A stretch of 60,382 bases of DNA, counting the filler, from Globobulimina sp. (taxonomy: Eukaryota): the NCBI GenBank assembly GCA_003354225.1. It is 3 parts of 3 records of this genome, joined end to end, with 100 filler letters (N's around TTAATTAATTAA, not from the genome) between each part and the next. Parts side by side here need not be neighbours in the genome. Positions count along the whole stretch, not along the records: positions 1 to 23,686 come from PIVH01000001.1; 2 more parts are not named here. One strand, given 5' to 3'. Both the position numbers and the translations under genes were made by a program. Numbering within the stretch: position 1 is the first letter of the stretch; each line of letters starts with the position of its first letter. Of the stretch, positions 2,326-25,098 are shown piece by piece. A model generated the notes under the pieces. The model worked only from the letters and a program-made list of their open reading frames with translations, was not told the origin of the DNA and did not search any database.

Positions 2326-2333
2326 AAAATTGA
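2326..2333 (+). promoter_or_regulatory. AAAATTGA giant-virus-type early promoter (representative of 14 intergenic copies)
   Basis: Copies at 2326, 2759, 3383, 3593, 5240, 5904, 6488, 9361, 10282, 10882, 18275, 18690, 20184, 23173; usually extended as AAAATTGATTTG and upstream of + strand ORFs. Confidence 0.85.
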
Positions 2334-2369
2334 TTTGTATATATACTATTAAATAAACCAATTATTATA

Positions 2370-2681
2370 ATGAATAAACTTTTATTAAAAGACCAAACTA
2401 AATTAGTAAATAAACTTATTCAATTAGAAGAAATTGAATATAATGATATTCAAAACTCTATTATATATGATGAAGAAACAGAAGAAGAAGAAGAACAAGA
2501 AGTATATATTTGGTATTTAATTGATAGTTGTTATTTAGATGTATTTTTTGATTTAAAAACACCGATTATTGAATATGAAAGTCAAGTGTGGATAGGTCAA
2601 ACTTGGTATGGATGTTCTTGGAAAAACTCTCATTTATGGAAACCTCTGTGTGAGAAATTACCATTCTTAAAGAATGAATAA
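2370..2681 (+). CDS. Hypothetical protein
   Basis: 103-aa ORF behind AAAATTGA; Trp-rich C-terminus. Confidence 0.75.
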   Translation: MNKLLLKDQTKLVNKLIQLEEIEYNDIQNSIIYDEETEEEEEQEVYIWYLIDSCYLDVFFDLKTPIIEYESQVWIGQTWYGCSWKNSHLWKPLCEKLPFLKNE

Positions 2682-2686
2682 ACTAT

Positions 2687-2717
2687 TTTTTAAAAAACCA
2701 TATATTATAATGGACTT
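2687..2717 (+). terminator. Conserved bipartite 3' element TTTTTAAAAA-N9/10-A(T/A)AATGGACTT (representative of 6 copies); function inferred
   Basis: Copies start at 2687, 3325, 6957, 10818, 12042, 20734, each just downstream of a gene that has the AAAATTGA promoter. Confidence 0.6.
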
Positions 2718-2789
2718 ATTTTCTATTATAATATTTTAAAAAAAAATGTTTTTAAATTAAAATTGATTTGTATATTATTTATAACAAAT

Positions 2790-3323
2790 ATGATTACTAA
2801 AACCCAAATCAAAATAAATAAAAGAAAAATGGAATTACAATTAAAAAGTATTATTCATTGTTGTAAATATTGTCGTGATATTAAAAAATCTATTGATATG
2901 AAATCTTCTAAAATGTGTAAGGATTGTTTTAGAAGTAGAGATATAATAAGATGTAAATTAAAAAGACAATTGAAGGGAAATAAATTAAAAAAACAAACAT
3001 ATTATCAAAAACATAAAAAAGAACTCATTAAAAAACAAAAGATAAATAATAAAAAAAGAAAAGAAGAATTAAAAAAATATCAAAAACAATATTGGATTAA
3101 AACAAGAACAATTGGAGAGTTATTCAATAGAGTTTTATTTGAATTAAGACAAACAACTATTAAATCTAAATCTATTGAACCTATTAATAAAAGAAGTAAA
3201 GGATATAAAAGAAATAAAGTAATTACTTTATATCCGTGTAAATGTTGTGGATTAAAAGGAAGGTCATATTCAGCATATATTAGACATTGTAAATCAAAGA
3301 AACATATTAAATTATCTTCTTAA
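2790..3323 (+). CDS. Basic Zn-finger protein
   Basis: CxxC pairs and C-terminal CxCC..H..SKKH finger; ATG 2790 preferred because the TTG at 2763 lies inside the promoter. Confidence 0.75.
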   Translation: MITKTQIKINKRKMELQLKSIIHCCKYCRDIKKSIDMKSSKMCKDCFRSRDIIRCKLKRQLKGNKLKKQTYYQKHKKELIKKQKINNKKRKEELKKYQKQYWIKTRTIGELFNRVLFELRQTTIKSKSIEPINKRSKGYKRNKVITLYPCKCCGLKGRSYSAYIRHCKSKKHIKLSS

Positions 3324-3354
3324 CTTTTTAAAAATCATATTATATAATGGACTT

Positions 3355-3603
3355 AATTGTAATTGTAAAATAAAATTATTTTAAAATTGATTTGTTTATT
3401 TATTTTAAAACTATGAAGTTTGTATTTTGGTGTGCTGTTTTGTATCTCGCATTCTTTTATCATCCTAAAAGAGAACTTGAAACACTGGAAGAAATTGAAG
3501 AAATTGAAAGACTTATTAAAGACTTTGAAGATAGAAAAGAACGAGTGCTTGAAGAACTTGAAGAAATTGTAATTGTAAAATAAAATTATTTTAAAATTGA
3601 TTT
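3355..3603 (+). repeat. 39-bp direct repeats flanking a small ORF
   Basis: AATTGTAATTGTAAAATAAAATTATTTTAAAATTGATTT at 3355-3393 and 3565-3603. Confidence 0.95.
3413..3583 (+). CDS. Small protein with hydrophobic N-terminus and coiled coil
   Basis: ATG 3413 downstream of AAAATTGA; MKFVFWCAVLYLAFF. Confidence 0.65.
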   Translation: MKFVFWCAVLYLAFFYHPKRELETLEEIEEIERLIKDFEDRKERVLEELEEIVIVK

Positions 3604-3636
3604 ATTTATTATAATAATATATCACCTATTATTATA

Positions 3637-3918
3637 ATGTCCTCTCATTTAGAACAATTAGAATTAAGATTAGAAAGAAACGAAAGAGAAATATCAAGAG
3701 CAAAAAAAGAGATGGATACATTTCTCAAAAATAAACAAATCATAACAACAGAATTACTTGAACTTATAGACGAATATGAGATTGAAGATAGATTAACATC
3801 CACATTTGGAGCACTACTTGTGAGTATCAAAAGCAAACAAGATGATAAAGAAAATATTGAAAATAAGATAATAGATTGTAAAATCCAAAGTATCTTTAAT
3901 AAATATATTTACGAATAA
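3637..3918 (+). CDS. Coiled-coil hypothetical protein
   Basis: 93-aa ORF behind AAAATTGA. Confidence 0.7.
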   Translation: MSSHLEQLELRLERNEREISRAKKEMDTFLKNKQIITTELLELIDEYEIEDRLTSTFGALLVSIKSKQDDKENIENKIIDCKIQSIFNKYIYE

Positions 3919-5211: not shown

Positions 5212-5276
5212 ATATTAAAAAAAATATTTTTTTCATATTAAAATTGATTTGTTTATATATATTAAACAACTCAACA

Positions 5277-5882
5277 ATGAATACAAAAAGAATAATCAAG
5301 AAAAACAAGAAAACAGATATGGAAGAGAAAACAAGAAAAGATACAGTAAAATCAAATTGTAAAATTGCGGTAGATGGTATAATTGAAAGAATAAATGATG
5401 ATTTTTTTGATTTAGAAGATAGAGAAGATGTAATCTTAAATGAAACAATTGAACGAAGAGAAGTTATAGGTAAAGTAATGTATGTAATAAGAAGAATTAG
5501 AGAACTTTCTTTATACGATATGATAGAATATAATTTTAATCATATATGTTTTGGTATGGGTGAAGATGAAGATAATTATTGGTTTATGATGAGATTTAAA
5601 AATATGGGTTTTAAAGATAAACGAATGATATATACATTTAACGACGAAATCCAAGAGTTATTATATGATTATCAATCAAAAGATACAGATAAAAGTCATA
5701 CAATTCAAGTATGTTATGATGATGAAGATGATGAGATATTTTTTTATATTGGGTTTAATAAACTACCAAATAAAATATGTCCTATTTGTGGAGAACCATC
5801 AATATTGGGTTGTAGTGATAGGAAAATGTGTTGGGATTGTGAATGGGATGGTAAGTGTGATGGTAAGTGTGATGATGATTAA
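5277..5882 (+). CDS. Hypothetical protein with C-terminal Zn-ribbon
   Basis: CPICG..CWDC; ATG 5277 preferred because the TTG at 5244 lies in the promoter. Confidence 0.75.
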   Translation: MNTKRIIKKNKKTDMEEKTRKDTVKSNCKIAVDGIIERINDDFFDLEDREDVILNETIERREVIGKVMYVIRRIRELSLYDMIEYNFNHICFGMGEDEDNYWFMMRFKNMGFKDKRMIYTFNDEIQELLYDYQSKDTDKSHTIQVCYDDEDDEIFFYIGFNKLPNKICPICGEPSILGCSDRKMCWDCEWDGKCDGKCDDD

Positions 5883-5956
5883 AAAAAAGATTTTTTCCAT
5901 ATTAAAATTGATTTGTTTATTATATATAAACAACTCAATTAATAACAACTTTTAAA

Positions 5957-6469
5957 ATGACTATTTTATCTACACCTTTTAACCTTCAAACATTCTTAAA
6001 GAAGTTTTATTCATTTCAAGTAGAAATGGGTATTACAAAACAACATTGTTTTCATAATGTTAGGTATTTAGTAGATTATCTAAAATGTTATGATATTAAT
6101 GTAAAATCTGTTAATGGATTTATAATATTGAGAAAGGAAAATCAACAAAGGAAAATAGAACATAACTGGATTGAATATGATAATGAAATCATTGAACCAA
6201 ATAAGAGATTATATGATTTTCAATCAATAAATAAGAAATATTTTAAGTTTAGTGAAACAAAAAAAATGTGGAAACAAATGAATACACCAAGAAAAGAGAG
6301 AATAGAAGATATGATATATAAAAAAAACCATTTAAAAAAATATTTTTCAAAATCTTATGGAATACATTTAAAATATGAAGATATGTTATGGAGTAGAATT
6401 ATAAATAAAGAACTATGTAATGAAGTATTATGTGAAACAAATGAATATAATTTATCACAACAAATATAA
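5957..6469 (+). CDS. Transglutaminase-like (Cys-His-acid) fold protein
   Basis: HCFHN ... VNGF ... HNWIE ... IIEP resembles the C..H-x-W..(D/E)P pattern. Confidence 0.5.
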   Translation: MTILSTPFNLQTFLKKFYSFQVEMGITKQHCFHNVRYLVDYLKCYDINVKSVNGFIILRKENQQRKIEHNWIEYDNEIIEPNKRLYDFQSINKKYFKFSETKKMWKQMNTPRKERIEDMIYKKNHLKKYFSKSYGIHLKYEDMLWSRIINKELCNEVLCETNEYNLSQQI

Positions 6470-6527
6470 AAAATATTTTTTTATATTAAAATTGATTTGT
6501 TTATTATTTATAAACTAATCAATTAAA

Positions 6528-6947
6528 ATGACTTATAATTGTATTGAAGATATATTGGAAGATTGTTCTGTTGAAACTGAAACTGAATGGAATAATTTAA
6601 TTCCAAAAGATATTGAAAGTATATTAAATACTATGTTATTTGAGACCGAGGAATATTTTTCTTTCTCTTGTGGAACTGATAGTTATTGTTTTAAACAAAT
6701 AGAAGAAGTTAGTAGGTATAAATCTGGAAAGAAGAAAGGACAAGTTAAAGAAGTTATAGTTCAAGAATGTCTTGGTAATGGTGAATTACTTAATGCTAAA
6801 AAGAAACTAAAATATACTGGGAAGAACTGGAAAATTACTCATTATTTTAGAACCTCTTGTTTTTATGGTAATAAATGGATTAAAGAAACTTCTAAATATT
6901 ATATGAGTAAAGGTTGGGTTCAACCATTCCAAGACCCTTCTTTTTAA
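6528..6947 (+). CDS. Hypothetical protein with possible F-box-like motif
   Basis: LIPKDIESIL; behind AAAATTGA. Confidence 0.7.
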   Translation: MTYNCIEDILEDCSVETETEWNNLIPKDIESILNTMLFETEEYFSFSCGTDSYCFKQIEEVSRYKSGKKKGQVKEVIVQECLGNGELLNAKKKLKYTGKNWKITHYFRTSCFYGNKWIKETSKYYMSKGWVQPFQDPSF

Positions 6948-7056
6948 AAAAAAATATTTTTAAAAAATATCCTTGAATAATGGACTTATTTTAAGTATAA
7001 TGAATATGAAATTATTATAAATATATAATAATATCATAATATATATTGATAATAGA

Positions 7057-7848
7057 ATGACTAAAAAAACAAAGAATAAAGAATGTGTTAATTTTTATAA
7101 CCATAACCATCACGGTATTTCTGTATTAGTTGGTCCTACTTTCTCTGGTAAATCTACGATTTTATTCACAATTCTTACTTCAAGTTTCTTGAAAAGATTT
7201 GTATATAAAAAAATATATATAGTTTGTGATGATACTTATAATGCTAATGAGTTATACAAAGTTTTAAACTTTAAAGTTAATTATATTTTTGAGTTTTTCA
7301 CACCAGAACTAATTGAAGAATTGTATGAAAAGGTAAAAGAAGATAGAGAAGAAGATATAAGAAAAGGTGAAATTAACCATTATGCTTTGGTAATGGATGA
7401 TTGTATAAATCATAAATGTTTTAATAAACGAGGTAGTGATGGTATAATATCAACGCTGGCTACAAAATCCAGACATTTTTTTTTAGATAATTACATACTT
7501 ACACAAAAATATAAAAGTATCCCAGATATAGTTCGTAAGAACACTCAATTTTTAATGGTTTGTGCTAATATTGGAGCAAAACAAGAAAGGGATGCGATAA
7601 TGGAAGAAATGAATATAATCAAAGATAATAATAATGAGTTTGTTAATCAAAATGTAATATGGAAGTTAGGACACAGAGTTAATAAAAAATATGATGTTTT
7701 AATATATGATATTAGAAATAAAAATGTATATAGAAACTTTCAATTATTAGATAAAGATTTATTAACAGAAGAAAATGAAAAATATGAAATGAGAAGATAT
7801 ATTAAAAAGAGAGAGTTTTTAGAAAAAATGGAAAAAATGAAGACTTAA
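7057..7848 (+). CDS. A32-like (FtsK/HerA) genome-packaging ATPase
   Basis: Walker A GPTFSGKST, Walker B LVMDD, A32 signature SRH..TQ..IP..RKN. Confidence 0.92.
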   Translation: MTKKTKNKECVNFYNHNHHGISVLVGPTFSGKSTILFTILTSSFLKRFVYKKIYIVCDDTYNANELYKVLNFKVNYIFEFFTPELIEELYEKVKEDREEDIRKGEINHYALVMDDCINHKCFNKRGSDGIISTLATKSRHFFLDNYILTQKYKSIPDIVRKNTQFLMVCANIGAKQERDAIMEEMNIIKDNNNEFVNQNVIWKLGHRVNKKYDVLIYDIRNKNVYRNFQLLDKDLLTEENEKYEMRRYIKKREFLEKMEKMKT

Positions 7849-7915
7849 TAAATGAATATTCAAACAAGAAAATTATATAAAAATAAAATATGATTATATA
7901 ATATAATAAATCAAT

Positions 7916-8647
7916 ATGAGTAAAGGAAAATTAATATTAAACTTATCAAAATCATTATATAATCAAAAATCAGTAGGTCATTTTAAAGTTAAATTACCAA
8001 AGAAAATAGAGAACTTTAATTCTTTTTATATCCATAATGTTAATATGATTAATTCACAATATACAAGTAATTCATTTAATAATACATTAGAAGTTTATTG
8101 GAATACTCAATTAAAAACAATTACTATGCCTACTCAACTATTCTCAACGATAGATGATTGGTGTTTAGAATTACAAACTCAATTAAATACAACTTTTTCT
8201 ACAAGTTTATTTTCAGTAGCATCTAATTCTGCTACTATGAAAAAAATGACTATCAAAACAACTGATAGTTCTGTATTTGAATTAAGGTTTTCAACATCAT
8301 CAAGAATTAATAGAGTTATGGGATTTTTAGAACAAGATTTCGTAGGAACATATACATATACAGCAACAAAGTTTTATAAACTATATCCAAAATATTTTGA
8401 TTTTAGATGTGATGAATTAGTTCAAAATATTACAACTGAAATTGATAATGAAGATACAAAAAGTTTTTTACAAGTTGATATTACTAATTCTACTGGTGGT
8501 ATATTATTTAATAAAACTCATATTATAGAAGATATGGTTGCTCCATTAGGTTATTTAGAATATTTAACTATTTATATTTATGATGATGAAGGTAATGCTG
8601 TTGAATTACAAGACGACGAAATTATCATTACTATTTATTATAAATAA
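7916..8647 (+). CDS. Minor capsid (penton) protein, single jelly-roll, Polinton/PLV-type
   Basis: N-terminal FKVKLPKKI..NSQY..NN and C-terminal LTIYIYDDEGNAVEL pattern; adjacent to the ATPase. Confidence 0.75.
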   Translation: MSKGKLILNLSKSLYNQKSVGHFKVKLPKKIENFNSFYIHNVNMINSQYTSNSFNNTLEVYWNTQLKTITMPTQLFSTIDDWCLELQTQLNTTFSTSLFSVASNSATMKKMTIKTTDSSVFELRFSTSSRINRVMGFLEQDFVGTYTYTATKFYKLYPKYFDFRCDELVQNITTEIDNEDTKSFLQVDITNSTGGILFNKTHIIEDMVAPLGYLEYLTIYIYDDEGNAVELQDDEIIITIYYK

Positions 8648-9079
8648 ACGAAACAATCATTTAAGAAAAAAATTATATTTAGTATTTATATATGTTTTAT
8701 TTTAAAAAGAAAAAAAAGAAAAAAAAGAATAATTTTGATTTTTTACCAAAAGAACTTGAAGATATAATAATGGATTATAAAGAAAGTTTAGAAAATTATG
8801 AAAAAAATAATATAATACATTTTAAAAATAAAACAAGAGACGAAATGTTGAAAATATATAAAAGAATTACTACTAATTATGATATTTTATTAAGAAAAAA
8901 TCATTTTGATGATGAAGAAGAAACATATTACGATAATAAATTATATAATTTATATATAAGAATTATAAGAAATGATTTTAGATATAACAAAACATTTAAT
9001 TTTTCTATACAAAGAGAATTATATTATAAATAAACGAAACAATCATTTAAGAAAAAAATTATAATTAGTATTTATATAT
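8636..9079 (+). repeat. 58-bp direct repeats (1 mismatch) flanking ORF 8692-9033
   Basis: 8636-8693 and 9022-9079; both contain the last codons YYK* of the preceding gene. Confidence 0.95.
8692..9033 (+). CDS. Hypothetical protein with F-box-like motif
   Basis: FLPKELEDIIMDY. Confidence 0.7.
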   Translation: MFYFKKKKKKKKNNFDFLPKELEDIIMDYKESLENYEKNNIIHFKNKTRDEMLKIYKRITTNYDILLRKNHFDDEEETYYDNKLYNLYIRIIRNDFRYNKTFNFSIQRELYYK

Positions 9080-9086
9080 ACTAACT

Positions 9087-9356: not shown

Positions 9357-9407
9357 AAGTAAAATTGATTTGTTTTATTATATTATATAAATATATAACA
9401 AAACAAA

Positions 9408-9737
9408 ATGGTAAGAATTGTAGCAGAACCTTTAACTATGAAAGATAGAAAAGATTTTTTTTATAACAAGTTTATTTCAAAATGTAATAATGATAGTGTA
9501 AATGATTTATTAATATGGAATATGGATAGTGTAAGAGTTCCTATTAAAAACTTAACAACTGATAATATTAAACCATTTTTAGATATGCTTTCAAAGTTTA
9601 ATGAATATGATTATGATACTTTCATAATAATTTTTGAAATATATGATTTTGATGTAAGTAAAATATATCATTTAACCGAAAAACAGCAGAAAAATAGTAT
9701 GTTGAATAAATTATCTTACACATTTATAGAAGATTAA
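9408..9737 (+). CDS. Hypothetical protein
   Basis: 109-aa ORF behind AAAATTGA. Confidence 0.75.
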   Translation: MVRIVAEPLTMKDRKDFFYNKFISKCNNDSVNDLLIWNMDSVRVPIKNLTTDNIKPFLDMLSKFNEYDYDTFIIIFEIYDFDVSKIYHLTEKQQKNSMLNKLSYTFIED

Positions 9738-10157: not shown

Positions 10158-10364
10158 AAAATGTAAGTTTTTGTTATAATTTTTGTTGAAAAAAACTTTA
10201 AAGTTATATCAAGGTTAAACTTGAAAATAGGGATGGTTTTTAAGATTAGGGAGTGTTTTAAAAAAAAGATTTATTTTTATTAAAATTGATTTGTATATTA
10301 TCTATAAACTAATCAATTAACCTTTTAACTTTAACTACTCTTTTTAATAACTTTCATTATAACT

Positions 10365-10817
10365 ATGATGCCGTTAGACGATTTTAATATGATGGGATTA
10401 TCTGGATTTATTGGTATGCTTAATATTATAAAAAGTCATAAATTACCAGTAAAAAAATTAAAACAAGAATGTAGATATTTTAACATTAAGGGATTTAGTA
10501 AATTGAAAAAAGCAGAATTAAAAGAATTATTAATAAAAACATTTGAATCAAAAATTAACAGAATAATAGCACGGAGATTGAAAGATGTTGGAACTTCAAT
10601 AAGAGTTTTAGGTCTTATGAGTTATACAGAAGAAAATAGCACAAATATAATACCAAGTATGATGAAACCAAGAAAAGATTTTAATTACACAAAACGACAA
10701 TTACGCAAACAATCAAGTATGGTAAGAATTAATTATAAACTTGATTTAGTTGAAAAAGAAACAATTAATCAATTAGATAAAGACACTACAAATATGTTAT
10801 TATCTTTTATTGATTAA
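10365..10817 (+). CDS. Protein with Rho-N/SAP-like helix-extension-helix motif
   Basis: LPVKKLKQECRYFNIKGFSKLKKAELKELL. Confidence 0.65.
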   Translation: MMPLDDFNMMGLSGFIGMLNIIKSHKLPVKKLKQECRYFNIKGFSKLKKAELKELLIKTFESKINRIIARRLKDVGTSIRVLGLMSYTEENSTNIIPSMMKPRKDFNYTKRQLRKQSSMVRINYKLDLVEKETINQLDKDTTNMLLSFID

Positions 10818-10917
10818 TTTTTAAAAAACAATATTATAAAATGGACTTATTTTAATATAAAAAAAAATATTTATTTATATTAAAATTGATTTGTATATTA
10901 TTTATATAATAACATAA

Positions 10918-11985: not shown

Positions 11986-12133
11986 AAAAAAGATTTATTT
12001 ATTATTAAAATAGATTTAAACATATTGATGACTGGAATTAATTTTTAAAAAATATATTTGAATAATGGACTTATTTTATATTTAGATTTGGTTTTTTATT
12101 TAAATATAATATAATACATATATTATATAAAAA

Positions 12134-12844: not shown

Positions 12845-12890
12845 AATAGAAATAAAAAACTATGTATATTATATAAAACAAAAAAGTATA

Positions 12891-13265
12891 ATGGGTTTTT
12901 TCAAGAATATTGGAAAGTCAGTAAATAAGAAAATAATTAAACCAGTAGGTAAGGAATTGAAAAAAGCAGACCCTATTGGAAAAGTAAAGGATGTTGCGGA
13001 AGATGCTCTTCAATTTTTTGAAAAAATTGGTTCAAAATTATCCGTTATTGGAAAGGATATTGGTTCAATTTTTGAATTACAATTCAAATTATTAGAGAAT
13101 ATAATAAAATTAGTGCCTACAATAATTTCAATTTTAAAGAACTCACTTGTATTATTTTCTACTACTTGTGAGGTATTAGAATTATTGATTATTATTGGTC
13201 CAGTTTTAATAACATATTATTATATATCAAGAATGATTACCAATTTTGAGAAAAATGATTTATAA
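12891..13265 (+). CDS. Amphipathic protein with hydrophobic C-terminus
   Basis: ATG 12891 (MGFFKNIGK) follows an AT-rich leader; C-terminal LLIIIGPVLITYYYI. Confidence 0.7.
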   Translation: MGFFKNIGKSVNKKIIKPVGKELKKADPIGKVKDVAEDALQFFEKIGSKLSVIGKDIGSIFELQFKLLENIIKLVPTIISILKNSLVLFSTTCEVLELLIIIGPVLITYYYISRMITNFEKNDL

Positions 13266-13335
13266 TGAATATTCAAAGGAGTAAATATAATAAATATAAA
13301 ATATTATAATATTATATAAAACATAAAATATTATA

Positions 13336-13985: not shown

Positions 13986-15179
13986 ATGTCTAAACAAAAA
14001 CCAACATATATGAAAGATGAAGAAATCCACGACTTATCAAACACAAAAACATCAATCGTAATATTAGAACCAGTTGGAGCATTAGATTATGTAAAAACCA
14101 ATACTGGTGCTAATTTTATTGAGTTTCAAATGCCTAAATCTGGTATTTTTGATATGAGAGTAGCATATGTAAAAGGATTAACTCAATCTAACGGAATAAT
14201 GAGTAAAGATATTCAAGCATCAGTTTCTTCTTTTGAAGTAAGAGTTGGTGGTAAAGCAATATTTAAAAGTAGTGAAATGAACGCCGACAACATCATTAAT
14301 CCATTAATCAATAAATTAACTTTAACCGATTTTCAAGTAGCAGATGGAGATTATCAATTATACAATCAAACTTGTATTGCCGATACTGATTATCCATTTC
14401 AATTAAAATTATCAAATGAAAATAAACATTTTGGACTATGTCCCATTTTAAACAAAACAATTGACTTTTCTTTAATTAAAGATAAAGTTGTATTAAGAAT
14501 TATTTTTGATAAAACAGTTTCTAATCATTGCCATACATTAGCAACTACCCGACAATGGACCGATATGAGATTAATGTTAGAGAAAATTGATGCTGATATT
14601 GATTTATCCAGTGAAGTTGTATTCAAATCAGTTGGTTATTCAATCATTCAACAAACTCAATTAGCAAGTTCTAATAAATGTAAAATTGATATGAGCGGAT
14701 TAGACCACGATAACGTAATTGGTGTAATTCCAATGATGATTTCAAGTGATAATTTTAATTCAAGTGATTTAGCAGAAAAATATCTAAATAACTTTGATTA
14801 TACTGGATTAAAAAACTTACAAGTCTATAATGACTATAATCCAATCCTATCCCACGAACCATTAGAGATGGAAGATTATTTCCAAACACAAAACCTAATG
14901 GCTGAAAAGTTTTTAGGAACAAGATTTAAGAAAAATCAAGCGAAAATTGGAACATATCATTCTACTTATGCTAAAACAGCAACAGACAGCAAAAGATGTC
15001 TATTAATTCCTTTATCCGCAAATGTAAAATCTTTATCTGGATTAAATCTATCCAAAAGTGATACAAGTTCAGTAGAGTTCGGTATTGCTAATACAGTTGA
15101 TATGACTGTATGGAGTGTTGTATTATATACAAAAATATTTGCCCTTGAAAATGGTAAGTTCGTAGCAGTATTAAATTAA
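13986..15179 (+). CDS. Major capsid protein, double jelly-roll (Polinton/PLV-type)
   Basis: 397 aa, beta-rich; N-terminal P..FIEFQMPKSGIFD pattern resembles Polinton/PLV MCPs; same contig as the ATPase and penton. Confidence 0.75.
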   Translation: MSKQKPTYMKDEEIHDLSNTKTSIVILEPVGALDYVKTNTGANFIEFQMPKSGIFDMRVAYVKGLTQSNGIMSKDIQASVSSFEVRVGGKAIFKSSEMNADNIINPLINKLTLTDFQVADGDYQLYNQTCIADTDYPFQLKLSNENKHFGLCPILNKTIDFSLIKDKVVLRIIFDKTVSNHCHTLATTRQWTDMRLMLEKIDADIDLSSEVVFKSVGYSIIQQTQLASSNKCKIDMSGLDHDNVIGVIPMMISSDNFNSSDLAEKYLNNFDYTGLKNLQVYNDYNPILSHEPLEMEDYFQTQNLMAEKFLGTRFKKNQAKIGTYHSTYAKTATDSKRCLLIPLSANVKSLSGLNLSKSDTSSVEFGIANTVDMTVWSVVLYTKIFALENGKFVAVLN

Positions 15180-15459: not shown

Positions 15460-17040
15460 ATGTTTAACAATAACGGATTTAATATAGATGGAAATAATTT
15501 TTTTAATACTGTAAATACAAATCAATTAATTACTGATAAAATAGAGGTTGATAGTGCTGTAATCCAAGGTGGATTAATAGTTGATGGAGGAACATTAACT
15601 ATTGATGAAACTTTAAATGCTGTTGGTATAAATTGTTTAACTCCAACATTAGATTTAACTATTCAAAACTCTTCCACTGGTTTTGAGGTAGGGAATAGTG
15701 GTAATATGTATATTGTAAGAGAAAATGAAACAATGATTACTTTGGGAACTGATACTACTATTCATACTAATACTATAATTGATGGTAATATTACAACAGA
15801 TACTTTAAATGTCTCTGGAACTGCTAATATTACTGGTAATTTAATAATTCAAGACCAGTTATATTTTAAAGACAGTAATACGAGAATTAAAGAATGGAAC
15901 GGTGATATGGTATTTTTAACCAATAATACTGAAAGAATGAAAATTGATGAACCTGCTGGTGATATTAACATTACAAATAGTTTAGATGTAGGAAGTAATA
16001 TAACAAGTCAAACTTTAACAACAACCAGTATAGCAACTTTTAATGATGATGTAATAATTATAGGTGATTTAAATGTTAATGGAACAACAACAACAATTGA
16101 TACACAAAATCTAACCATAGAAGACAGTATGATTAAACAATCAAAAAACAATTATTTAAGTGATTTAATTGATATTGGAGAATATGGAGTTTATAATAAT
16201 GGAACAACTGCTTATACTGGAATGTTTAGAGATGCTGATGATGGAGTTTATAAGATTTTCAATAGTTTAGAAGTTGAACCAACAACAACAGTTGATATTG
16301 GAGCAACTGGTTTTACTTATGCTGATTTAATGATAAATGATTTAACAGCAATTAATTTGAACGCAGATTATATTCAAATTACAGATGATAGTTTATATCA
16401 TTCACAATTAGGCGTAAAGGAACTCAAACTCTTTAACCCATCTCGGGGACACTTCTCAATTTTGAATACTGATGGTGAAGCAAGTAATGCGGCAGAGTTT
16501 GTAATCGCAACCACGAATACTGGGCCGGGATTAGGTTTAACACCAACTCCTTTATTTACATTAACAGAAGGAGGTAATTTAGACATTAAAGGTGATATTA
16601 CAGCAACTAATATCCCTACTACTGGTGGTGTTTTAAATATGATTATGGCTGATACATCAAGTGGTTTAGTAGCAATTGATACTACTTGTAGCACAACAAG
16701 TGAAACTGCTATGTATTATTACGCATATAGTCCAATATCATCAACGGGGAAAATATTAGTAGAAACTAATTTCCCTTATATCGTAAATGGGGATGGTAGT
16801 GATAGTTTTGAAGCAAGATTAAAGTTTTCTTACAATAATGCTCCAACCACTTTCTATACTTTACAAATGAAAATGTATGGCTCATCAACCAGAAAAAACA
16901 ATATAGATATATTATGGGGGAATATTGATAAAACGGGAGAAGACATTTTAATTAAGTTTTATGTTAATAGATTATCTAGTAATGATACTTACACAAGCAC
17001 AACAGCAGAAGCAATGATAAAAATTACAGAAACAAATTAA
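15460..17040 (+). CDS. Fibre/spike-like virion protein
   Basis: Repeated I.GN(I/L) beta motifs; GDLNVNGTTTTIDTQNLTIED and YTGMFRDADDG resemble phage and giant-virus fibre proteins. Confidence 0.7.
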   Translation: MFNNNGFNIDGNNFFNTVNTNQLITDKIEVDSAVIQGGLIVDGGTLTIDETLNAVGINCLTPTLDLTIQNSSTGFEVGNSGNMYIVRENETMITLGTDTTIHTNTIIDGNITTDTLNVSGTANITGNLIIQDQLYFKDSNTRIKEWNGDMVFLTNNTERMKIDEPAGDINITNSLDVGSNITSQTLTTTSIATFNDDVIIIGDLNVNGTTTTIDTQNLTIEDSMIKQSKNNYLSDLIDIGEYGVYNNGTTAYTGMFRDADDGVYKIFNSLEVEPTTTVDIGATGFTYADLMINDLTAINLNADYIQITDDSLYHSQLGVKELKLFNPSRGHFSILNTDGEASNAAEFVIATTNTGPGLGLTPTPLFTLTEGGNLDIKGDITATNIPTTGGVLNMIMADTSSGLVAIDTTCSTTSETAMYYYAYSPISSTGKILVETNFPYIVNGDGSDSFEARLKFSYNNAPTTFYTLQMKMYGSSTRKNNIDILWGNIDKTGEDILIKFYVNRLSSNDTYTSTTAEAMIKITETN

Positions 17041-17135: not shown

Positions 17136-18104
17136 ATGGAAGTAGTATTATTAAGTATCGCTGGAATATCAGCAACATTATTAAAAGTAAGTGTAATGGG
17201 AGTTGGATTAAAAGAATTAGCACCATCCACTTTCTCTGGATTAATTTTATTAACGAAGTTTTGGAAAAAATCATACGCAATAACCAAATTATCACAGTGT
17301 CTTTTTTTCAGTATTTTTGTGAGATTACCAAGAAAAAGTGATAAAGACCTCATACAATTTAGAAAACTTGTAAAGAAGATTTGGTCCAGACATTCTGCTT
17401 ATGAAATCTATCGTTATTATAGGTATGTAAAAGCATTAAGTCCATTAATTTTACAAGCCAATTTAAGTCAAGATGAAATCTTTATGGAGAATAAGCACGA
17501 AATCCTATTAAATTGTGATAGGTTCAAAGATTATGTATGTAAAGCCTTATATTGTAATGCTTTATCTAAAATCATTGAAGTTCAATTATGGTGTGCTTCT
17601 GCCCCAATTAAAGATATACAAAAATTAAAATATTCATTTTTATTTAATTTAGCAGAAAAGAAAACAGTATCAGTAGAGCAATGTAGAACTATCTGCGAGC
17701 AATTTGAAGAGAAAGTCAATAAATATCAAGTATCTCAAATGGAAAAATATGCTACTGATTTTGATTGTGAAAAAACTGTTATTGATAATATCTTTGATGA
17801 ATTAGAGAATGACGATGATACATTTAAAGAAGGAGCAATTGGGTCAATTGTTATGATTAGAAAATGTATTATGAGACAAAAACACGCAGTAGGTTATGAT
17901 AATTTTAATTCATTATCATCAACTTTAACTGGAATTAACGAACAAGTTGAAACCAGTAAGAACTTAAAATCTGGTTCAACAGAAGAAGCAAATAGAGTTC
18001 ATCAATTATTCCATCAAGATAGACAAAATAGTATTTTAAGTGATACTCCAAGTGTATCAACAACATCAACAACATCAACAATATCAAGAACAGAAAGAAA
18101 TTAA
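17136..18104 (+). CDS. Hypothetical protein with hydrophobic N-terminus
   Basis: 322-aa ORF. Confidence 0.8.
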   Translation: MEVVLLSIAGISATLLKVSVMGVGLKELAPSTFSGLILLTKFWKKSYAITKLSQCLFFSIFVRLPRKSDKDLIQFRKLVKKIWSRHSAYEIYRYYRYVKALSPLILQANLSQDEIFMENKHEILLNCDRFKDYVCKALYCNALSKIIEVQLWCASAPIKDIQKLKYSFLFNLAEKKTVSVEQCRTICEQFEEKVNKYQVSQMEKYATDFDCEKTVIDNIFDELENDDDTFKEGAIGSIVMIRKCIMRQKHAVGYDNFNSLSSTLTGINEQVETSKNLKSGSTEEANRVHQLFHQDRQNSILSDTPSVSTTSTTSTISRTERN

Positions 18105-18295
18105 AAAATAATTATATAATATATAGGAAAAATGAAAATAAAATATATAAGAATATATCAAGGTAAGAAAAAGACAAAATATATAATTCGTAAGAAAATT
18201 AATATATGGAGAAGAAACGGATTTTATAAACCTCAATGTATTTATATATTGAAGAAATAAAAAATATATTTATTAAAATTGATTTATTTTAATAA

Positions 18296-18373
18296 AATAC
18301 TATACAAAATATCATTTAAATATAAATCGTTATAATACTATACAAAAATATCATTTAAATATAAATCGTTATA
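18296..18373. repeat. ~38-bp tandem duplication
   Basis: AATACTATACAAAA(A)TATCATTTAAATATAAATCGTTAT x2. Confidence 0.9.
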
Positions 18374-18406
18374 AGAATTATAATATTATATATTATATAT
18401 TATACT

Positions 18407-18679
18407 ATGAATATTACTCAAATACAACAAATGCTAACACCCGAATTATTATTATCAATATTAAATAAGTTTAGAGTATGTAAAATGTGCGATAAACCAA
18501 AGGACAAAAGCACATTCAAAGGGACAAAATGTGCTGAATGTTATAAAACATATATAACTGGAAAAATGAAGACATACAACGAAAAACAATCAACCAAAGA
18601 TAGATTACATTTAAAATATAAAGCAATTAAGGCAAGTAAAGCAATTAAGGCAAGTAAAGCAACCACCATAAAGGTATAA
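18407..18679 (+). CDS. Small Zn-binding protein
   Basis: CKMC..CAEC. Confidence 0.7.
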   Translation: MNITQIQQMLTPELLLSILNKFRVCKMCDKPKDKSTFKGTKCAECYKTYITGKMKTYNEKQSTKDRLHLKYKAIKASKAIKASKATTIKV

Positions 18680-18779
18680 AAACATTATTAAAATTGATTT
18701 ATTACATTTATTTAAATAAAATCGTTTAAATAAATATATATATATATAATATAAGTATATAGACAACTAACTCTTTAAA

Positions 18780-20138
18780 ATGAATAATCAAAATCAAGAA
18801 GAAGAAGAAACAATTTTAGATATTACCGAAGAATTAACTGACGAGGAACAAACAACACAAATATTAAATGATGACCCTTTAATATGTATTTGTAGAGATT
18901 GTATTCAAAACCACGGACAAGATGGAAAAACATTCACAGCAAAAAGAAATAAATCAAGACATTTAAAAAGAATGGCTAAAATGGTTAAAAAGACAAAAAT
19001 CATTTATAATTGTAAATGTAAAGTCTGCCTTAAAAAATACGGAATTAATGGAAGAACTGATTTTGATAAATACGGATATGAAAGACATTTAAAAGCAATT
19101 GAAAACAAAATCAAAAGAGATAATAAAGTTTATATATGTGGGTGCTGTAATAAAGATTGGGAACATCAAAGCATATTAGATAAACATCAAGGGGGAGATA
19201 AGTATAGAACTTGGTATAATACGATGAATGGTGAAATTAATGGAATTAAGATTTTTACAACCAGTAAAGATAAAACATTTACGAAGGAGATATTAAATAA
19301 AGAAGCAGAAGAAAAAAAAAATATAATTACTGAAAAATATAAAAAAACATTAGGACAAGATAAAAAAACATTAGAACAAGAATTAAAAGAAGAATTAAAA
19401 AAGTTTGAAGAAAACACAATAGGGGAGGATTATGATACAATTACCTTAAAATGTATTGAATGCTCTATATGTAAAGTTTATTGTAATGATTTAAAAAAAC
19501 ATACAGAATTAGAAACTCATAAATGGATATTAAATTATTTATCAAATCAAAATACTCAAAATAATTACAGTTATTCAAAATATACAAATATGATGTTATA
19601 CAATCAATTATATAATAGAAACGCAATTAATAGAATAGCAAGGTCAAGAGACACCAGAGAAGATTTTAAAAAAGCAGAACAGAAATTAACCAGATATTTT
19701 GAAGGAGATAATAACAATAACAATATCAAAGAGAATAAACAAATACACGGTTATAATAAAATGATGATTGTAAAAAGTTTAAACGGACAAAATACATTAA
19801 ATAAACAATATTATAAATCATTTAAACAGTTCAATTGTAAATGCTGTAAAACATCATTTAAATTATATGAAACATTTAAAAGACATAACGAAAAGAATGA
19901 ATATTATCATATAGAACAAGAGAAAGAAAGAAAAGAAGAGAAAAAACAAAAACAACAATATTTAATAGATAGTGGAAATTATAGAGTTTTATCACTTTTC
20001 AATATGGGTTATGGTATTGACGCATTAACATTTGAAAATATGCGACAAAAAACCTCAATAGATATTAGAGCAGAACGAGCAGAACGATATGATGAAATAA
20101 CAGAAAAGAATAAATGGGAAAAAATGATAATAGATTAA
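18780..20138 (+). CDS. Multi-Zn-finger protein
   Basis: Several CxC/CxxC..H motifs (CICRDC..RH, CKCKVC..RH, CGCC..KH, CSIC..KH, CKCC..RH). Confidence 0.8.
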   Translation: MNNQNQEEEETILDITEELTDEEQTTQILNDDPLICICRDCIQNHGQDGKTFTAKRNKSRHLKRMAKMVKKTKIIYNCKCKVCLKKYGINGRTDFDKYGYERHLKAIENKIKRDNKVYICGCCNKDWEHQSILDKHQGGDKYRTWYNTMNGEINGIKIFTTSKDKTFTKEILNKEAEEKKNIITEKYKKTLGQDKKTLEQELKEELKKFEENTIGEDYDTITLKCIECSICKVYCNDLKKHTELETHKWILNYLSNQNTQNNYSYSKYTNMMLYNQLYNRNAINRIARSRDTREDFKKAEQKLTRYFEGDNNNNNIKENKQIHGYNKMMIVKSLNGQNTLNKQYYKSFKQFNCKCCKTSFKLYETFKRHNEKNEYYHIEQEKERKEEKKQKQQYLIDSGNYRVLSLFNMGYGIDALTFENMRQKTSIDIRAERAERYDEITEKNKWEKMIID

Positions 20139-20262
20139 ATTAAAAAGATATTAAAGTTATATAAATTACGAAAAAAACATAGTAAAATTGATTTGTTAAT
20201 ATACTATTAATTAATCAATTATTATAAACCTTTAAAAACTTTAAGACATTTAAAAAGACATT

Positions 20263-20733
20263 ATGAGTAAAACTTTTTGTAGATTTTGTAAAAAAGAGTA
20301 TTCTTTGAATTATTATAATTCCTATCATATTAAGAGTAAAAAACATTTAGGATTAAAAAAAGAAATTGAAGACAAAGAAGAATTGAATAATTTTAGAGTA
20401 GAAAAACAAAAAGAAGAAATAAGTAATAATTTTATGATTGAGTTTATGAATATGAAAAAGAAAATGTTAGAAATGGAGAAAAGAATTAAAGAGTTAGAGA
20501 AAAATGAAGATATTAATGATTTAATTGGAGAAGGTGTAATTACAGAGAGAAGATTTGTAATAGTTAAGAAACAAAAATGTAATGTTTGTAATGAAGAAAA
20601 AGATTTGAATATGTTTGATATTGATAGAAAATGTAGAAATGGAAGAAGAAAGAGATGTAAAGAGTGTAGAAGAGTTAGAAAGAAAGAATTAGATTTGGAA
20701 AAGATATTAGAGAGTTGTTTAAACATAGTTTAA
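20263..20733 (+). CDS. Zn-finger / coiled-coil protein
   Basis: CRFC..HIKSKKH and CNVC..CKEC. Confidence 0.8.
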   Translation: MSKTFCRFCKKEYSLNYYNSYHIKSKKHLGLKKEIEDKEELNNFRVEKQKEEISNNFMIEFMNMKKKMLEMEKRIKELEKNEDINDLIGEGVITERRFVIVKKQKCNVCNEEKDLNMFDIDRKCRNGRRKRCKECRRVRKKELDLEKILESCLNIV

Positions 20734-20937
20734 TTTTTAAAAAATGTAATTGTATAATGGACTTGTTTTTAAGAATAAGTATTTATAAAGATATTAAAGT
20801 ATTTTTATAAATCAAATTGTAAAGAAAATCAAAAGTGTAAATATATTAGGGTGCTGGTAATGTGAAGTTTATTACAATCTATATCAATATTTTTATTTTG
20901 AGTTAATTCATCAATAAATAAATATACACCTTATAAA

Positions 20938-21025
20938 GGTTCTCTTAAAGTTCTTAAATGGTTCTCTTAAAGTTCTTAAATGGTTCTCTTAAAGTTCTTA
21001 AATGGTTCTCTAAAAGTTCTTAATA
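20938..21025. repeat. 22-bp tandem repeat x4
   Basis: GGTTCTCTTAAAGTTCTTAAAT x3 plus one degenerate copy. Confidence 0.95.
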
Positions 21026-21056
21026 GTTCTCAATTTATATATTTATATATAATATA

Positions 21057-22166
21057 ATGACTGAAATTAAAAAAAAATATCCGTGTCCTTATTGTGGGGT
21101 AGAATACGAACATCCTACATCTATGTATAAACATAAAAATCATAAATGTAAAAAGAACCCTAAACGAAAAATAAATAAAGAAATTGTAAAAAATGAAATA
21201 CTCGCAAATAAATCAAAAACATTTAATAAAATGGTTAAAGAAGAAGTTAAAGAACAAGTAAAAGAACGAATTGTATATATAGATAGAGATAAGGAAGTAT
21301 ATAGAGATAATCCAGCAAATATAAATAGAATTAGACAATTAGAAAATAGAATTAGAGAACTTGAAACCGAAATATATCATATAAATAATATTACACCTCG
21401 TAGAAATAATAAAATCCAAAATACAATAAAAAAATTACGAACTGATAATCAAACATTACGAAATGATAATCAATCAGTATATAAAGAAAATCAAACATTA
21501 CGAAATTATAATCAATCAGTATATAATGAGGGCTTTAATGAAGGTGCTAAATCTATTTTTGAAGATGATACTATACGAGATTTAAGATTTTCTCAAAATA
21601 GAGATAATATCAATTTAAAACATAAATCCATAAGTGAAGCAACAACACCTCATTTTGAAATTGATTTAACACCAAAGAAGAAGAAGAAACGAGGAAGACC
21701 AAAAAAACAAATAAAAGATATAAATGAATATAAAAGAGGACCACAAATTAAGATAAAAAAGATGGAAACAGAACACGATAAAAATATAGAAATGAAAGCA
21801 GCAGAAAGAGTTAAAAAACAGAAAGAAGATAAAGAAAAGTTAATAAAACAAAAACAAAAATTAACACAAAAATTAACACAAAAATTAACAAAACCTAAAC
21901 CAAAACCTAAACCAAAACCTAAACCAAAACCTAAACCTAAAACAAAAAAACAAATACATAATGAACCACTCATAATAGAAGAGAATAATATGATTAATAA
22001 ATTAAGAAACAAACTTAATGATATAGATAATAACAAAAAATTAGGTGAATGGACGAAAAAAAAGAAGAAACGAGCAATAGAACTAAAAATTAAAGGTTGT
22101 AATAACCGTATTTTTAAATTAAGTAAAACGGACAAAAATAAGTTTAGATATGTTGAATATAAGTAA
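21057..22166 (+). CDS. Zn-finger protein with coiled coil, AT-hook and KP repeat
   Basis: CPYC..H..C; KRGRPKK; (KP)n. Confidence 0.8.
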   Translation: MTEIKKKYPCPYCGVEYEHPTSMYKHKNHKCKKNPKRKINKEIVKNEILANKSKTFNKMVKEEVKEQVKERIVYIDRDKEVYRDNPANINRIRQLENRIRELETEIYHINNITPRRNNKIQNTIKKLRTDNQTLRNDNQSVYKENQTLRNYNQSVYNEGFNEGAKSIFEDDTIRDLRFSQNRDNINLKHKSISEATTPHFEIDLTPKKKKKRGRPKKQIKDINEYKRGPQIKIKKMETEHDKNIEMKAAERVKKQKEDKEKLIKQKQKLTQKLTQKLTKPKPKPKPKPKPKPKPKTKKQIHNEPLIIEENNMINKLRNKLNDIDNNKKLGEWTKKKKKRAIELKIKGCNNRIFKLSKTDKNKFRYVEYK

Positions 22167-22200
22167 AACGGAAAATAATAAGTTTAAATATGTTGAATAT
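22121..22200. repeat. 40-bp tandem duplication across the stop codon of 21057-22166
   Basis: AAGTAAAACGGA..AATAAGTTTA.ATATGTTGAATAT x2. Confidence 0.9.
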
Positions 22201-22206
22201 TAATAT

Positions 22207-22371
22207 ATGAAAATACCGAACGATATTCAAGACATAATCAAGGATTATTTAGGTTATTTAAAATGCCCCAAGTGTGGAATAAGAATAGATAAATATTTTA
22301 AACTGTATAAACATTATTTCAAGAAACATAAGAAAGGTTTTATCAATAATGATTTAATATTAAAATATTAG
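22207..22371 (+). CDS. 54-aa F-box-like plus C2H2 finger protein (absent from ORF track)
   Basis: Manual translation MKIPNDIQDIIKDYLGYLKCPKCG..LYKHYFKKH. Confidence 0.6.
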   Translation: MKIPNDIQDIIKDYLGYLKCPKCGIRIDKYFKLYKHYFKKHKKGFINNDLILKY

Positions 22372-22400
22372 TTAATAATATAATATTAGTTAATAATATA

Positions 22401-22679
22401 ATGGATAATATGGATTATATTTATAAAATAATGGTAAAAAGAGAAAATGAATATACGAACAAAAAATCATATTGTTATGCGTGTGATTGTGAATTATACT
22501 ATCATAAACATCATATAAAAAGTTCTAAACATCAAGAACAAATTAAGAAGTTAAAAGATACAAAAATCAATATTATTATGGTTGAAAATGCTCTTAAAAA
22601 TTGTGAAATCAAAACTAAATTAATGAACTTTGGGAAGTTCTATAAAGATAAACAATTTAAGTTAAAAAAAATATATTAA
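22401..22679 (+). CDS. Zn-finger protein
   Basis: CYACDC..HIKSSKH. Confidence 0.75.
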   Translation: MDNMDYIYKIMVKRENEYTNKKSYCYACDCELYYHKHHIKSSKHQEQIKKLKDTKINIIMVENALKNCEIKTKLMNFGKFYKDKQFKLKKIY

Positions 22680-22701
22680 TCAATATTATATAAATATAAT
22701 A

Positions 22702-23037
22702 ATGAGTAATTTAAGAAATGGATTAGTAGAAATAGACACGGACGATGTTGAGAAAATGGACGAAAACGAACACGGTAATTTAGTCATTTATGTTAATTAT
22801 GAAAAATTGGGAAAATATGCTTTAACTTTTTTTGACGGATTTGAAAGAGAGTTTAATGATGAGAAAGAAACTTACGGACACGCAGACATATTTTTTAAAA
22901 GTAATAGCGACAAAGTTGGGAAAGTGATTGGGACAAAAGAGGACATAATTCATTTTATGGATTTTGTAGAAGACCATTTTAAAGAACCTATTTATTTAGA
23001 AAACGAAAAGCATTTAGTATTATTAATTGAACCTTAA
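22702..23037 (+). CDS. Hypothetical protein
   Basis: 111-aa acidic ORF. Confidence 0.75.
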   Translation: MSNLRNGLVEIDTDDVEKMDENEHGNLVIYVNYEKLGKYALTFFDGFEREFNDEKETYGHADIFFKSNSDKVGKVIGTKEDIIHFMDFVEDHFKEPIYLENEKHLVLLIEP

Positions 23038-23149
23038 AACACTCTCTAAACTCAAAAACACTCTCTAAAACACTCTCTAAAATGAAAATGACCTTACTCA
23101 AACTAAAAGTAAAAATTGAATAAAAATTAACACAAAAACTTACACTTTT
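23036..23149. repeat. Right arm of sub-terminal inverted repeat
   Basis: Reverse complement of 699-812 with about 1 mismatch. Confidence 0.95.
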
Positions 23150-23216
23150 TAAAAAAAAGATTTTTTCATATCAAAATTGATTATTATTATATTGTTAAAT
23201 AATATACTATTTAACA

Positions 23217-25088: not shown

Positions 25089-25098
25089 ATAATTTACT

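Follow-up and report, generated by a model that had tools for sequence, protein, structure and literature searches.

The stretch of DNA analysed here (the window) comprises 60,382 nucleotides (nt) of the Globobulimina sp. assembly GCA_003354225.1, and our main subject is its first contig, contig 1 (positions 1-23686; 23,686 nt, about 22% guanine plus cytosine, GC). Judging from the DNA, contig 1 (the element) is likely to be a small DNA virus of the polinton-like or virophage-like kind that encodes a capsid and whose genes are connected to the transcription machinery of an AT-rich, mimivirus-like giant virus. The reading is built on three signals that recur in one uncultured giant-virus bin, GVMAG-M-3300018048-10, namely an early-type start motif, AAAATTGA, a late-type pattern upstream of other genes, and a motif past stop codons, T5A6-N10-12-ATGGACTT(A/G)TTTT. 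As to the last of these, we propose tentatively, with chances that we put just short of even, that it may be an early-gene-specific termination or 3'-end signal of an AT-rich mimivirus-like lineage, similar to the terminator of poxviruses, and that the small virus may have copied a whole early cassette of bipartite promoter plus terminator; if this is true, it would be the first sequence-defined 3' signal in the mimivirus-like group, unlike the hairpin of mimivirus. Three contigs make up the window, and they are joined by N44-TTAATTAATTAA-N44 spacers at 23687-23786 and 42222-42321, so no feature should be taken to span a joint; the promoter and 3'-signal findings lie wholly inside contig 1.

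In the whole window AAAATTGA occurs 33 times, against 17.2 +/- 3.9 in shuffled sequences, and 28 of these copies fall in contig 1, the plus strand of which holds 19, 15 of them intergenic and 4 within open reading frames (ORFs). The region from 1480 to 23216 has 29 intergenic segments (4,018 nt), for which 2000 dinucleotide-preserving shuffles gave an expectation of 0.99 +/- 0.99 plus-strand copies, with a maximum of 6, where 15 are present; the minus strand of the same segments has none (0.39 expected), and no enrichment is seen within the plus-strand ORFs (4 copies, 6.9 +/- 2.5 expected). Fourteen of the 15 intergenic copies stand upstream of an ORF beginning with ATG, ten of them at 22-45 nt and four at 71-124 nt, so marking 14 of 32 genes, and the fifteenth (23112) lies inside the right inverted repeat described below. 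The extended form AAAATTGATTT is present in 13 copies, every one of them intergenic and on the plus strand, with 0.78 expected, and 10 of the 15 intergenic copies read AAAATTGATTTG. A 62-nt repeat family covers 8 of the 15 sites, and in it the motif is preceded by a palindrome of an A-run and a T-run (e.g., A8GAT6). In the six cases located, this palindrome starts 20-24 nt before the motif, even where the upstream stop codon is 57 nt away, and because of the fixed spacing we regard it as part of the promoter cassette rather than of the preceding gene's end. At 4 of the 14 gene-upstream sites TATAA begins exactly 14 nt past the motif end.

The early-type genes and their sites, all on the plus strand, are as follows, with the distance from motif end to ATG given in each case. 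Cassettes of the repeat family lie at 2303-2364 (palindrome and AAAATTGATTTG at 2326; 36 nt, ORF 2370-2681), 2736-2797 (motif 2759; 23 nt, Cys-rich ORF 2790-3323), 5217-5278 (motif 5240; 29 nt, ORF 5277-5882), 5881-5942 (motif 5904; 45 nt, ORF 5957-6469), 6465-6526 (motif 6488; 32 nt, ORF 6528-6947), 10259-10320 (motif 10282; 75 nt, ORF 10365-10817), 10859-10920 (motif 10882; 28 nt, the DNA methyltransferase gene starting at 10918) and 23150-23211 (motif 23173; 36 nt, ORF 23217-23561, which is outside the right inverted repeat). The motif is further found at 3383-3390, 22 nt before the ORF 3413-3583 of 56 amino acids (aa), and at 3593-3600, 36 nt before ORF 3637-3918, the latter within a 46-nt duplicate (98% identical) of the unit at 3355-3400. 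The remaining sites are 9361-9368 (39 nt, ORF 9408-9737), 18275-18282 (124 nt, ORF 18407-18679), 18690-18697 (82 nt, the multi-Cys/His ORF 18780-20138) and 20184-20191 (71 nt, ORF 20263-20733). No AAAATTGA was found upstream of the ATPase (7057), penton-like (7916), capsid-like (13986) and fibre (15460) genes. On the minus strand, there are 7 copies inside ORFs where 1.5 were expected, and four of them are crowded into 350 nt at 12783-13135, antisense within ORFs 12512-12844 and 12807-13265, with no minus-strand ORF downstream of these four.

Among the 18 non-early genes are those of the ATPase, both capsid candidates and the fibre, besides four that encode small membrane-type proteins and several for Cys/His-rich proteins. 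Their upstream regions were searched for the late pattern of Megamimivirinae, [AT]8-T[AC]T-N4-[AT]5-[AG]TA[TG]A (PMC11464507), with one mismatch allowed, in the 100 nt upstream, and with 500 dinucleotide shuffles as background. It is present at 12 of the 18 genes, against 3.75 +/- 1.57 expected, and none of the 500 shuffles reached 12; for the early genes the result was 5 of 14, against 2.47 +/- 1.29 expected. In 10 of 18 non-early genes, versus 2 of 14 early ones, the box ATATAATA is no more than 45 nt away from the ATG. The two early genes are those starting at 18407 and 18780, and since their early motif is far upstream in both, they may have both promoter types. Two duplications were also seen in intergenic DNA: a 58-nt unit (98% identical) at 8636-8693 and 9022-9079, before the non-early ORFs 8692 and 9087, and a unit starting with the palindrome TGAATATTCA, shared by 7851-7914 and 13264-13327, directly after the stops of the ATPase gene and of ORF 12807-13265.

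An earlier note on this DNA had counted 14 intergenic copies of the motif; their location and enrichment hold, and our count on the plus strand is 15, of which 14 are gene-upstream. Its statement that most copies are extended agrees with the counts given above, and the A/T hairpin said to come "often" before the motif corresponds to the palindrome of the cassette family, that is, to eight sites of the 15. The motif was claimed to be absent before the ATPase, penton, major capsid protein and fibre genes, which were said to have TATATA-rich leaders instead; the absence was found here, and the leaders of the 18 non-early genes are A/T-rich, of the ATATAATA type, and fit the late pattern published for mimivirus. 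It was also said to lie upstream of zinc-finger, methyltransferase and accessory genes; this is right for the methyltransferase, and the supposed zinc fingers are CxxC/HxxxH patterns only, with Pfam matches below threshold. The note had further named, as a ground on which its reading could fail, a lack of enrichment over the AT-rich background, and the shuffles gave a clear enrichment on the plus strand of intergenic DNA and none in plus-strand ORFs.

The core of the 3' motif, ATGGACTT, has 8 copies in the window versus 2.38 +/- 1.52 expected, 6 of which are on the plus strand of contig 1 and share the context T5-6A5-6, 10-11 nt, ATGGACTT(A/G)TTTT. The core starts 24-33 nt past a stop codon in five cases and 80 nt past it in one, and it follows 6 of the 14 early-type genes versus none of the 18 others (Fisher p = 0.003). 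The six copies are located at 2686-2726 (T6A6-N-ATGGACTTATTTT; core 29 nt past the stop of ORF 2370-2681), 3325-3358 (24 nt past ORF 2790-3323), 6957-6996 (33 nt past ORF 6528-6947), 10818-10857 (24 nt past ORF 10365-10817, with a text nearly equal to that of the copy L315:9992-10053 in the giant-virus bin), 12042-12081 (80 nt past the methyltransferase stop) and 20734-20773 (24 nt past ORF 20263-20733). Directly past the methyltransferase stop there is a decayed early cassette (A8GATTT...AAAATAGA, 11979-12017), then about 25 nt, and then the 3' motif, an arrangement that suggests the footprint of a lost early gene.

Regarding structure, hairpins with stems of at least 6 base pairs are not enriched after the stops of the element (16 of 31, against 14.8 +/- 2.6 in shuffles), and 27 aligned copies of the 3' motif gave no consensus RNA structure (0 pairs); a hairpin rule of the mimivirus type is therefore not supported for the element. 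Many copies (those at 2710, 6980 and 10841, and those of L315, L324 and L329) read ATG GAC TT(A/G) TTT TAA, a mini-ORF encoding MDLF-stop. Although this is probably a coincidence of the motif letters, it is conserved from element to giant virus. In the accessible text of the literature searched, including PMC8400408 and PMC12126595, no description of the ATGGACTT signal or of an early-gene termination motif in Mimiviridae was found, and the 3' motif appears to be new for mimivirus-like viruses.

A scan of IMG/VR for TTTTTAAAAAA-N8-13-ATGGACTT gave 62 loci, 14 of which belong to GVMAG-M-3300018048-10 and 3 to GVMAG-M-3300017986-31. Seven contigs of the former, picked for carrying the 3' motif, were analysed (89,380 nt, 21.8% GC). 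At E 1e-5, 28 of their 83 proteins have a Pfam family, including DUF5759, DUF5767, DUF5832, DUF5906, DUF5901, YqaJ recombinase, XPG, Fpg, photolyase, two SNF2 helicases, IF4E, NUDIX and ankyrins, and by its sequence content the bin is a genuine giant virus. Here ATGGACTT is intergenic in 22 of 23 sites, and wherever an upstream gene was called (20 sites), the motif comes after the 3' end of that gene and in its orientation, in 18 cases at 17-47 nt past the stop. Four sites face a convergent gene end, and there the motif cannot be a promoter of the next gene. Of 85 genes, 33 have the start motif AAAATTGA in the intergenic DNA before them, 25-104 nt away from the ATG, where 1.9 +/- 1.3 were expected, and the two signals are coupled, as ATGGACTT ends 14 of 32 genes bearing AAAATTGA versus 4 of 52 others (p = 2e-4). 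TATAA begins exactly 14 nt past the motif end at 16 of the 33 sites. The late pattern, too, is enriched at the non-early genes of the bin (33 of 50, against 16.7 +/- 3.3 expected) and not at the early ones (8 of 32, against 8.1).

Among intergenic 8-mers with at least two G/C letters, those common to many regions of both genomes are words of AATGGACTTATT only. The 3' signal is not confined to one bin, since L309 (GVMAG-M-3300017986-31) and L308 (IMGVR_UViG_3300008740_000626), both of 18-20% GC, have 5 and 4 copies of ATGGACTT in 10-14 kilobases (kb), where about 0.2-0.3 are expected. Further IMG/VR scans with the promoter 16-mer and the 3'-motif 14-mer gave, among the matches listed, nearly every contig once, with one match per locus, and the palindrome-plus-promoter pattern gave 7 singletons; one related 60-kb IMG/VR record has 18 copies of AAAATTGA versus 13 for the reversed control.

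Contig 1 has about 34 ORFs, all on the plus strand except one, and its largest product has 526 aa. When 31 element proteins were searched against Pfam at E 0.01, only two had a family at or above the cut-off, Pox_A32 ATPase and MethyltransfD12. The former is a packaging ATPase of the A32/FtsK-HerA type (7057-7848, plus strand; Pox_A32 E 8.3e-8, 32.4 bits versus a cut-off of 22.8), with GPTFSGKST as Walker A and VMDD as Walker B; its gene has a late-pattern match upstream and no early motif. No relatives of this ATPase were found in IMG/VR or among 425 candidates of a word-index search, and a search of PDB sequences remained at chance level. The second is a D12-class N6-adenine DNA methyltransferase of the early class (10918-11985, plus strand; MethyltransfD12 E 6.7e-14), with a DPPW motif.

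Two non-early genes on the plus strand are candidates for capsid proteins. The penton-like candidate (7916-8647, 243 aa) has protein-language-model features in Atlas that score 0.98 to viral clusters, the first of which is named DUF5901, a family that 13% of its members have; Pfam and PDB sequence searches gave no match, and its single-sequence AlphaFold model has a predicted local distance difference test (pLDDT) value of 40. The major-capsid-like candidate (13986-15179, 397 aa) scores 0.97 in Atlas to viral clusters of 394-430 aa, and two of the matched clusters have Capsid_N or Capsid_NCLDV in 12-16% of their members; the recognition value is low. Two weak multi-stretch phmmer matches to it were rejected, their own Pfam families being unrelated to capsids. 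The fibre protein (15460-17040, plus strand, 526 aa, non-early) has a central module of about 100 aa (residues about 200-300) common to phage tail-fibre-type proteins; the PDB sequence search of this protein returned chance-level rows only, and the module is also present on the 145-kb IMG/VR contig L317 (IMGVR_UViG_3300009103_001445; locus 203-502), with 48.5% identity over 101 residues. L317 is a large virus contig that also has a T5A6-N-ATGGACTT site, and it recalls the fibre-like genes common to PgV and PgVV.

Among the 31 proteins no polymerase or integrase family was found at E 0.01, and helicase, protease and RNA polymerase were likewise not recognised; virophage-type capsid and cysteine protease families gave no match at E 0.01 either, a search that very divergent forms would escape. 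Matches to Pfam zinc fingers were all below threshold (E 0.04-0.13), and at least nine ORFs show CxxC/HxxxH patterns in translation, with Cys-rich genes in both promoter classes. Repeats were also noted at 20935-21022, where four 22-nt tandem units (GGTTCTCTTAAAGTTCTTAAAT) stand upstream of ORF 21057-22166, and inside that ORF at 21828-21902, where a run of Pro-Lys codons comes after 12-nt repeats. The gene block is bracketed by an inverted repeat (114-230 nt, of which 114 nt at 99%) placed 698 nt and 532 nt in from the contig ends. On the left, 699-927 consists of two tandem 115-nt units, each with an outward-facing AAAATTGA (729 and 844, minus strand); on the right, 23036-23154 is 99% complementary to 699-812 and contains the copy at 23112.

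The relatives of the element that could be found are those of its methyltransferase, with identities of 55-93%, on short AT-rich metagenome contigs (18-24% GC); one methyltransferase with 75% identity (P0075) is encoded on a metagenome contig of 19.7 kb. The closest of them, L362, is 93% identical in the final 88 residues; its four AAAATTGATTTA copies are all intergenic and on the gene strand, and it also encodes a homologue of ORF 17136-18104. Another, L361, has T5A5-N-ATGGACTT after one gene and two copies of AAAATTGATTA before the methyltransferase gene, and L358 encodes a homologue of ORF 23217-23561. ORF 8692-9033 starts with a 26-residue N-terminal motif (FDFLPKELEDIIMDYK...) that recurs at 62-65% in L346:521-598, from the giant-virus bin, and in L362:5205-5282.

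The features found are those of a polinton-like virus in two respects: there is a packaging ATPase with a Pox_A32 match above the cut-off, and the size of 23,686 nt fits a genome of about 15-40 kb in which no protein-primed polymerase or retroviral-type integrase family is seen. The earlier note had described a polinton-like virus with ATPase, penton, major capsid protein and fibre; the ATPase was confirmed by Pfam and the fibre by its module, and the penton and capsid proteins are language-model look-alikes only, so the label is that of a candidate, with the Pox_A32 ATPase and these look-alikes as its basis and not capsid homology. The two-phase programme read by a giant virus, which the same note had proposed, is supported by our results, because the motif is found at 14 of 32 genes but is missing from all four morphogenesis and fibre genes, the late pattern is enriched at the other genes (12 of 18), and the bin has matching signals. 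Since the start and end signals are shared with a giant virus, dependence on such a virus for the reading of its genes is most likely. We infer the function of the start and end signals from their position and conservation. In a cell co-infected by the giant virus, the early transcription complex of the latter would use the AAAATTGA promoters to start the accessory and Cys-rich genes and that of the methyltransferase, and would stop or process the early transcripts at the ATGGACTT signal; the late apparatus would then express the packaging and capsid genes.

Several results weigh against this picture. The capsid and penton assignments come from language-model features only and are candidates; for the capsid-like protein an exhaustive phmmer search of 1.84 billion representatives found no homologue, Pfam, PDB and IMG/VR had none, and the single-sequence AlphaFold pLDDT is 30. 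No homologues of 34 element proteins were found in the 89 kb of the bin, except for the 26-residue match. The picking of the bin contigs by the 3' motif biases its density there upward, and the coupling to promoter class is free of this bias. As to the completeness of the element, the very ends of contig 1, compared with each other, gave no inverted-repeat match. In the relatives, the methyltransferase start is present in eight, and AAAATTGA lies upstream of it in L361 only; the five upstream regions inspected are A/T-rich late-like leaders. The assignment of gene to promoter class is thus not conserved. There is accordingly a family of such elements, in which the promoter type of a given gene is not fixed.

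It seems unlikely that contig 1 is instead a genome piece of a giant virus related to GVMAG-M-3300018048-10, carrying the signals of that virus as its own. Such a piece would have the GC content seen (22% versus 21.8%) and all of the early, late and 3' signals common to both, the contigs of the bin are also largely one-directional (e.g., 12 of 15 genes share a strand in one and 15 of 18 in another), giant viruses, too, encode A32 ATPase, capsid proteins and a DUF5901 protein, and the capsid genes of contig 1 are themselves candidates. However, the ATPase, penton-like, capsid-like and fibre genes are gathered within 10 kb of a 23.7-kb contig, in a block flanked by the 114-nt, 99% inverted repeat; the 397-aa capsid candidate has no match to Capsid_NCLDV or Capsid_N even at E 10, a Pfam family was recognised in 2 of 31 proteins versus 28 of 83 in the bin, the genes are small, with none above 526 aa, and apart from the 26 residues no protein is common to the 89 kb of the bin. 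With its orphan proteins, without the capsid families of nucleocytoplasmic large DNA viruses, and with a compact morphogenesis module between repeats, contig 1 is better explained as a separate small virus. To have the motif read by the host or by a factor of the element itself, such as a Cys/His-rich protein, the likeness to mimivirus would have to be a convergence of A/T-rich DNA, and the element would be either an integrated copy or a polinton-like virus of the nucleus that needs no helper. The nine or more ORFs with CxxC/HxxxH patterns (sub-threshold in Pfam) could bind DNA, and the 62-nt cassettes, which are 68-90% identical to the reference copy, could have spread by duplication, but the likeness goes beyond the octamer to TATAA at the same +14 spacing and to a 3' motif of about 25 positions at the same stop distance, coupled to the same promoter class in the giant virus; an unbiased search for shared 8-mers yields that motif only, and no host-like flank or change of composition is seen at the contig ends, so we consider this explanation very improbable.

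The 3' motif calls for a separate judgement, as ATGGACTT might be a DNA site for replication, recombination or packaging, or the mini-ORF ATG GAC TTA TTT TAA itself, and merely tend to follow genes. For this speak the 0 consensus pairs in 27 sequences, the many copies reading ATGGACTT(A/G)TTTTAA, an ATG with an in-frame stop, and the fact that an end-signal function is read from position alone. We find it rather doubtful, since in the bin the 20 sites for which an upstream gene was called all share its orientation and 18 lie 17-47 nt past its stop, whatever is downstream, and since in both genomes the motif goes together with an early promoter at the start of the gene it follows. Origins and packaging sites would not behave so, and co-orientation, distance and coupling argue for a class-specific role at the transcript end.

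What goes beyond printed work is the match of three signals (bipartite early promoter, late pattern and 3' motif) to one uncultured giant-virus lineage, and a sequence-defined 3' motif that is restricted to early-class genes in the element and coupled to the early class in the bin. If confirmed, the 3' motif would be a testable early terminator for giant viruses, and, if the reading is true, shared promoter-terminator "barcodes" could serve to match uncultured virophage-like elements to the giant viruses that help them, by sequence alone.

The other two contigs of the window were considered as a helper virus and dropped, as they have no DNA in common with contig 1 and resemble a phage and a gene for a cellular surface protein. 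Contig 2 (23787-42221; about 30% GC) has small genes in two divergent blocks, mostly ORFs without a family, and is probably a phage; it encodes a protein with a ribosomal L7/L12 C-terminal domain (27743-28111), a NUMOD1 protein (31496-31843) and a Cpn10-like protein (39436-40035). Contig 3 has a minus-strand ORF of 5,072 codons with a VWA domain at the N-terminus and also a REJ domain (42472-57690), which looks like a giant cellular surface or adhesion protein, and a second VWA protein at 58608-59792.

Among known systems the nearest is PgVV-14T, a polinton-like virophage of the mesomimivirus PgV-14T, for which the available text of the preprint gives AAAATTGA as the core of the PgV early motif, with 10 motif matches, 5 of them upstream of start codons, and draws an explicit contrast with Sputnik and mavirus (10.1101/2022.07.28.501842). 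A helper-dependent lifestyle with an early promoter is thus already in print, and the element is one more, very clean example of it. As in the accessible account of PgVV-14T, there is a small double-stranded DNA element with ORFs in one orientation (here all but one), an A32 ATPase, a phage-fibre-like gene and genes for major and minor capsid proteins (here candidates), and the early motif of the helper stands before a subset of genes, with A/T-rich intergenic stretches elsewhere, which is read as dependence on helper transcription. The differences are that the motif is found at 14 of 32 genes here versus 5 ORFs there, that neither a Yrec recombinase nor a TVpol replication gene is recognisable here by Pfam, and that the capsid candidate has no detectable sequence relative, any membership in the PgVV clade thus being putative. 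Furthermore, neither a 3' signal nor a significant late motif is mentioned in the parts of the preprint available, and both signals are present in our element; the candidate helper lineage is the giant-virus bin of 22% GC here and PgV there.

In the published text at hand, the transcriptome of Sputnik shows the late motif at 12 genes and the early one at 3 (PMC11998528), and Zamilon has late motifs at 9 of 20 genes (PMC11464507). The element resembles both in having helper promoter motifs on the genes of a small virus, and Sputnik in having early and late ones together; unlike these two, in which the late motif prevails in those accounts, it has the early motif at 14 of its 32 genes, and, unlike Lavidaviridae, it has no virophage-type capsid or cysteine protease family recognised at E 0.01. 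The early promoter AAAATTGA of mimivirus and its degenerate late element go back to Suhre 2005 and Legendre 2010, as cited in the available parts of PMC4402537 and PMC11464507. As described there for mimivirus, the same octamer stands strand-specifically before a large minority of genes and the late pattern at the rest; in the element and the bin the octamer is lengthened to AAAATTGATT(T) and followed by TATAA at +14, the comparison with mimivirus being by octamer only.

For the ends of transcripts, the accessible text on the "hairpin rule" of Mimiviridae describes polyadenylation signals that are hairpins not conserved in nucleotide sequence (PMC4402537). The 3' motif would be alike in being a virus-specific signal just past the stop that replaces the cellular polyadenylation signal, its 3' role being a proposal here, and it is unlike the hairpins described there in being conserved in sequence, in having no predicted pairing and in belonging to the early class only. 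In poxviruses, which are large DNA viruses of the cytoplasm, the termination signal of early genes is TTTTTNT, and it acts on early transcripts only. Although it differs in sequence, this terminator is the nearest functional analogue that we would propose for ATGGACTT.

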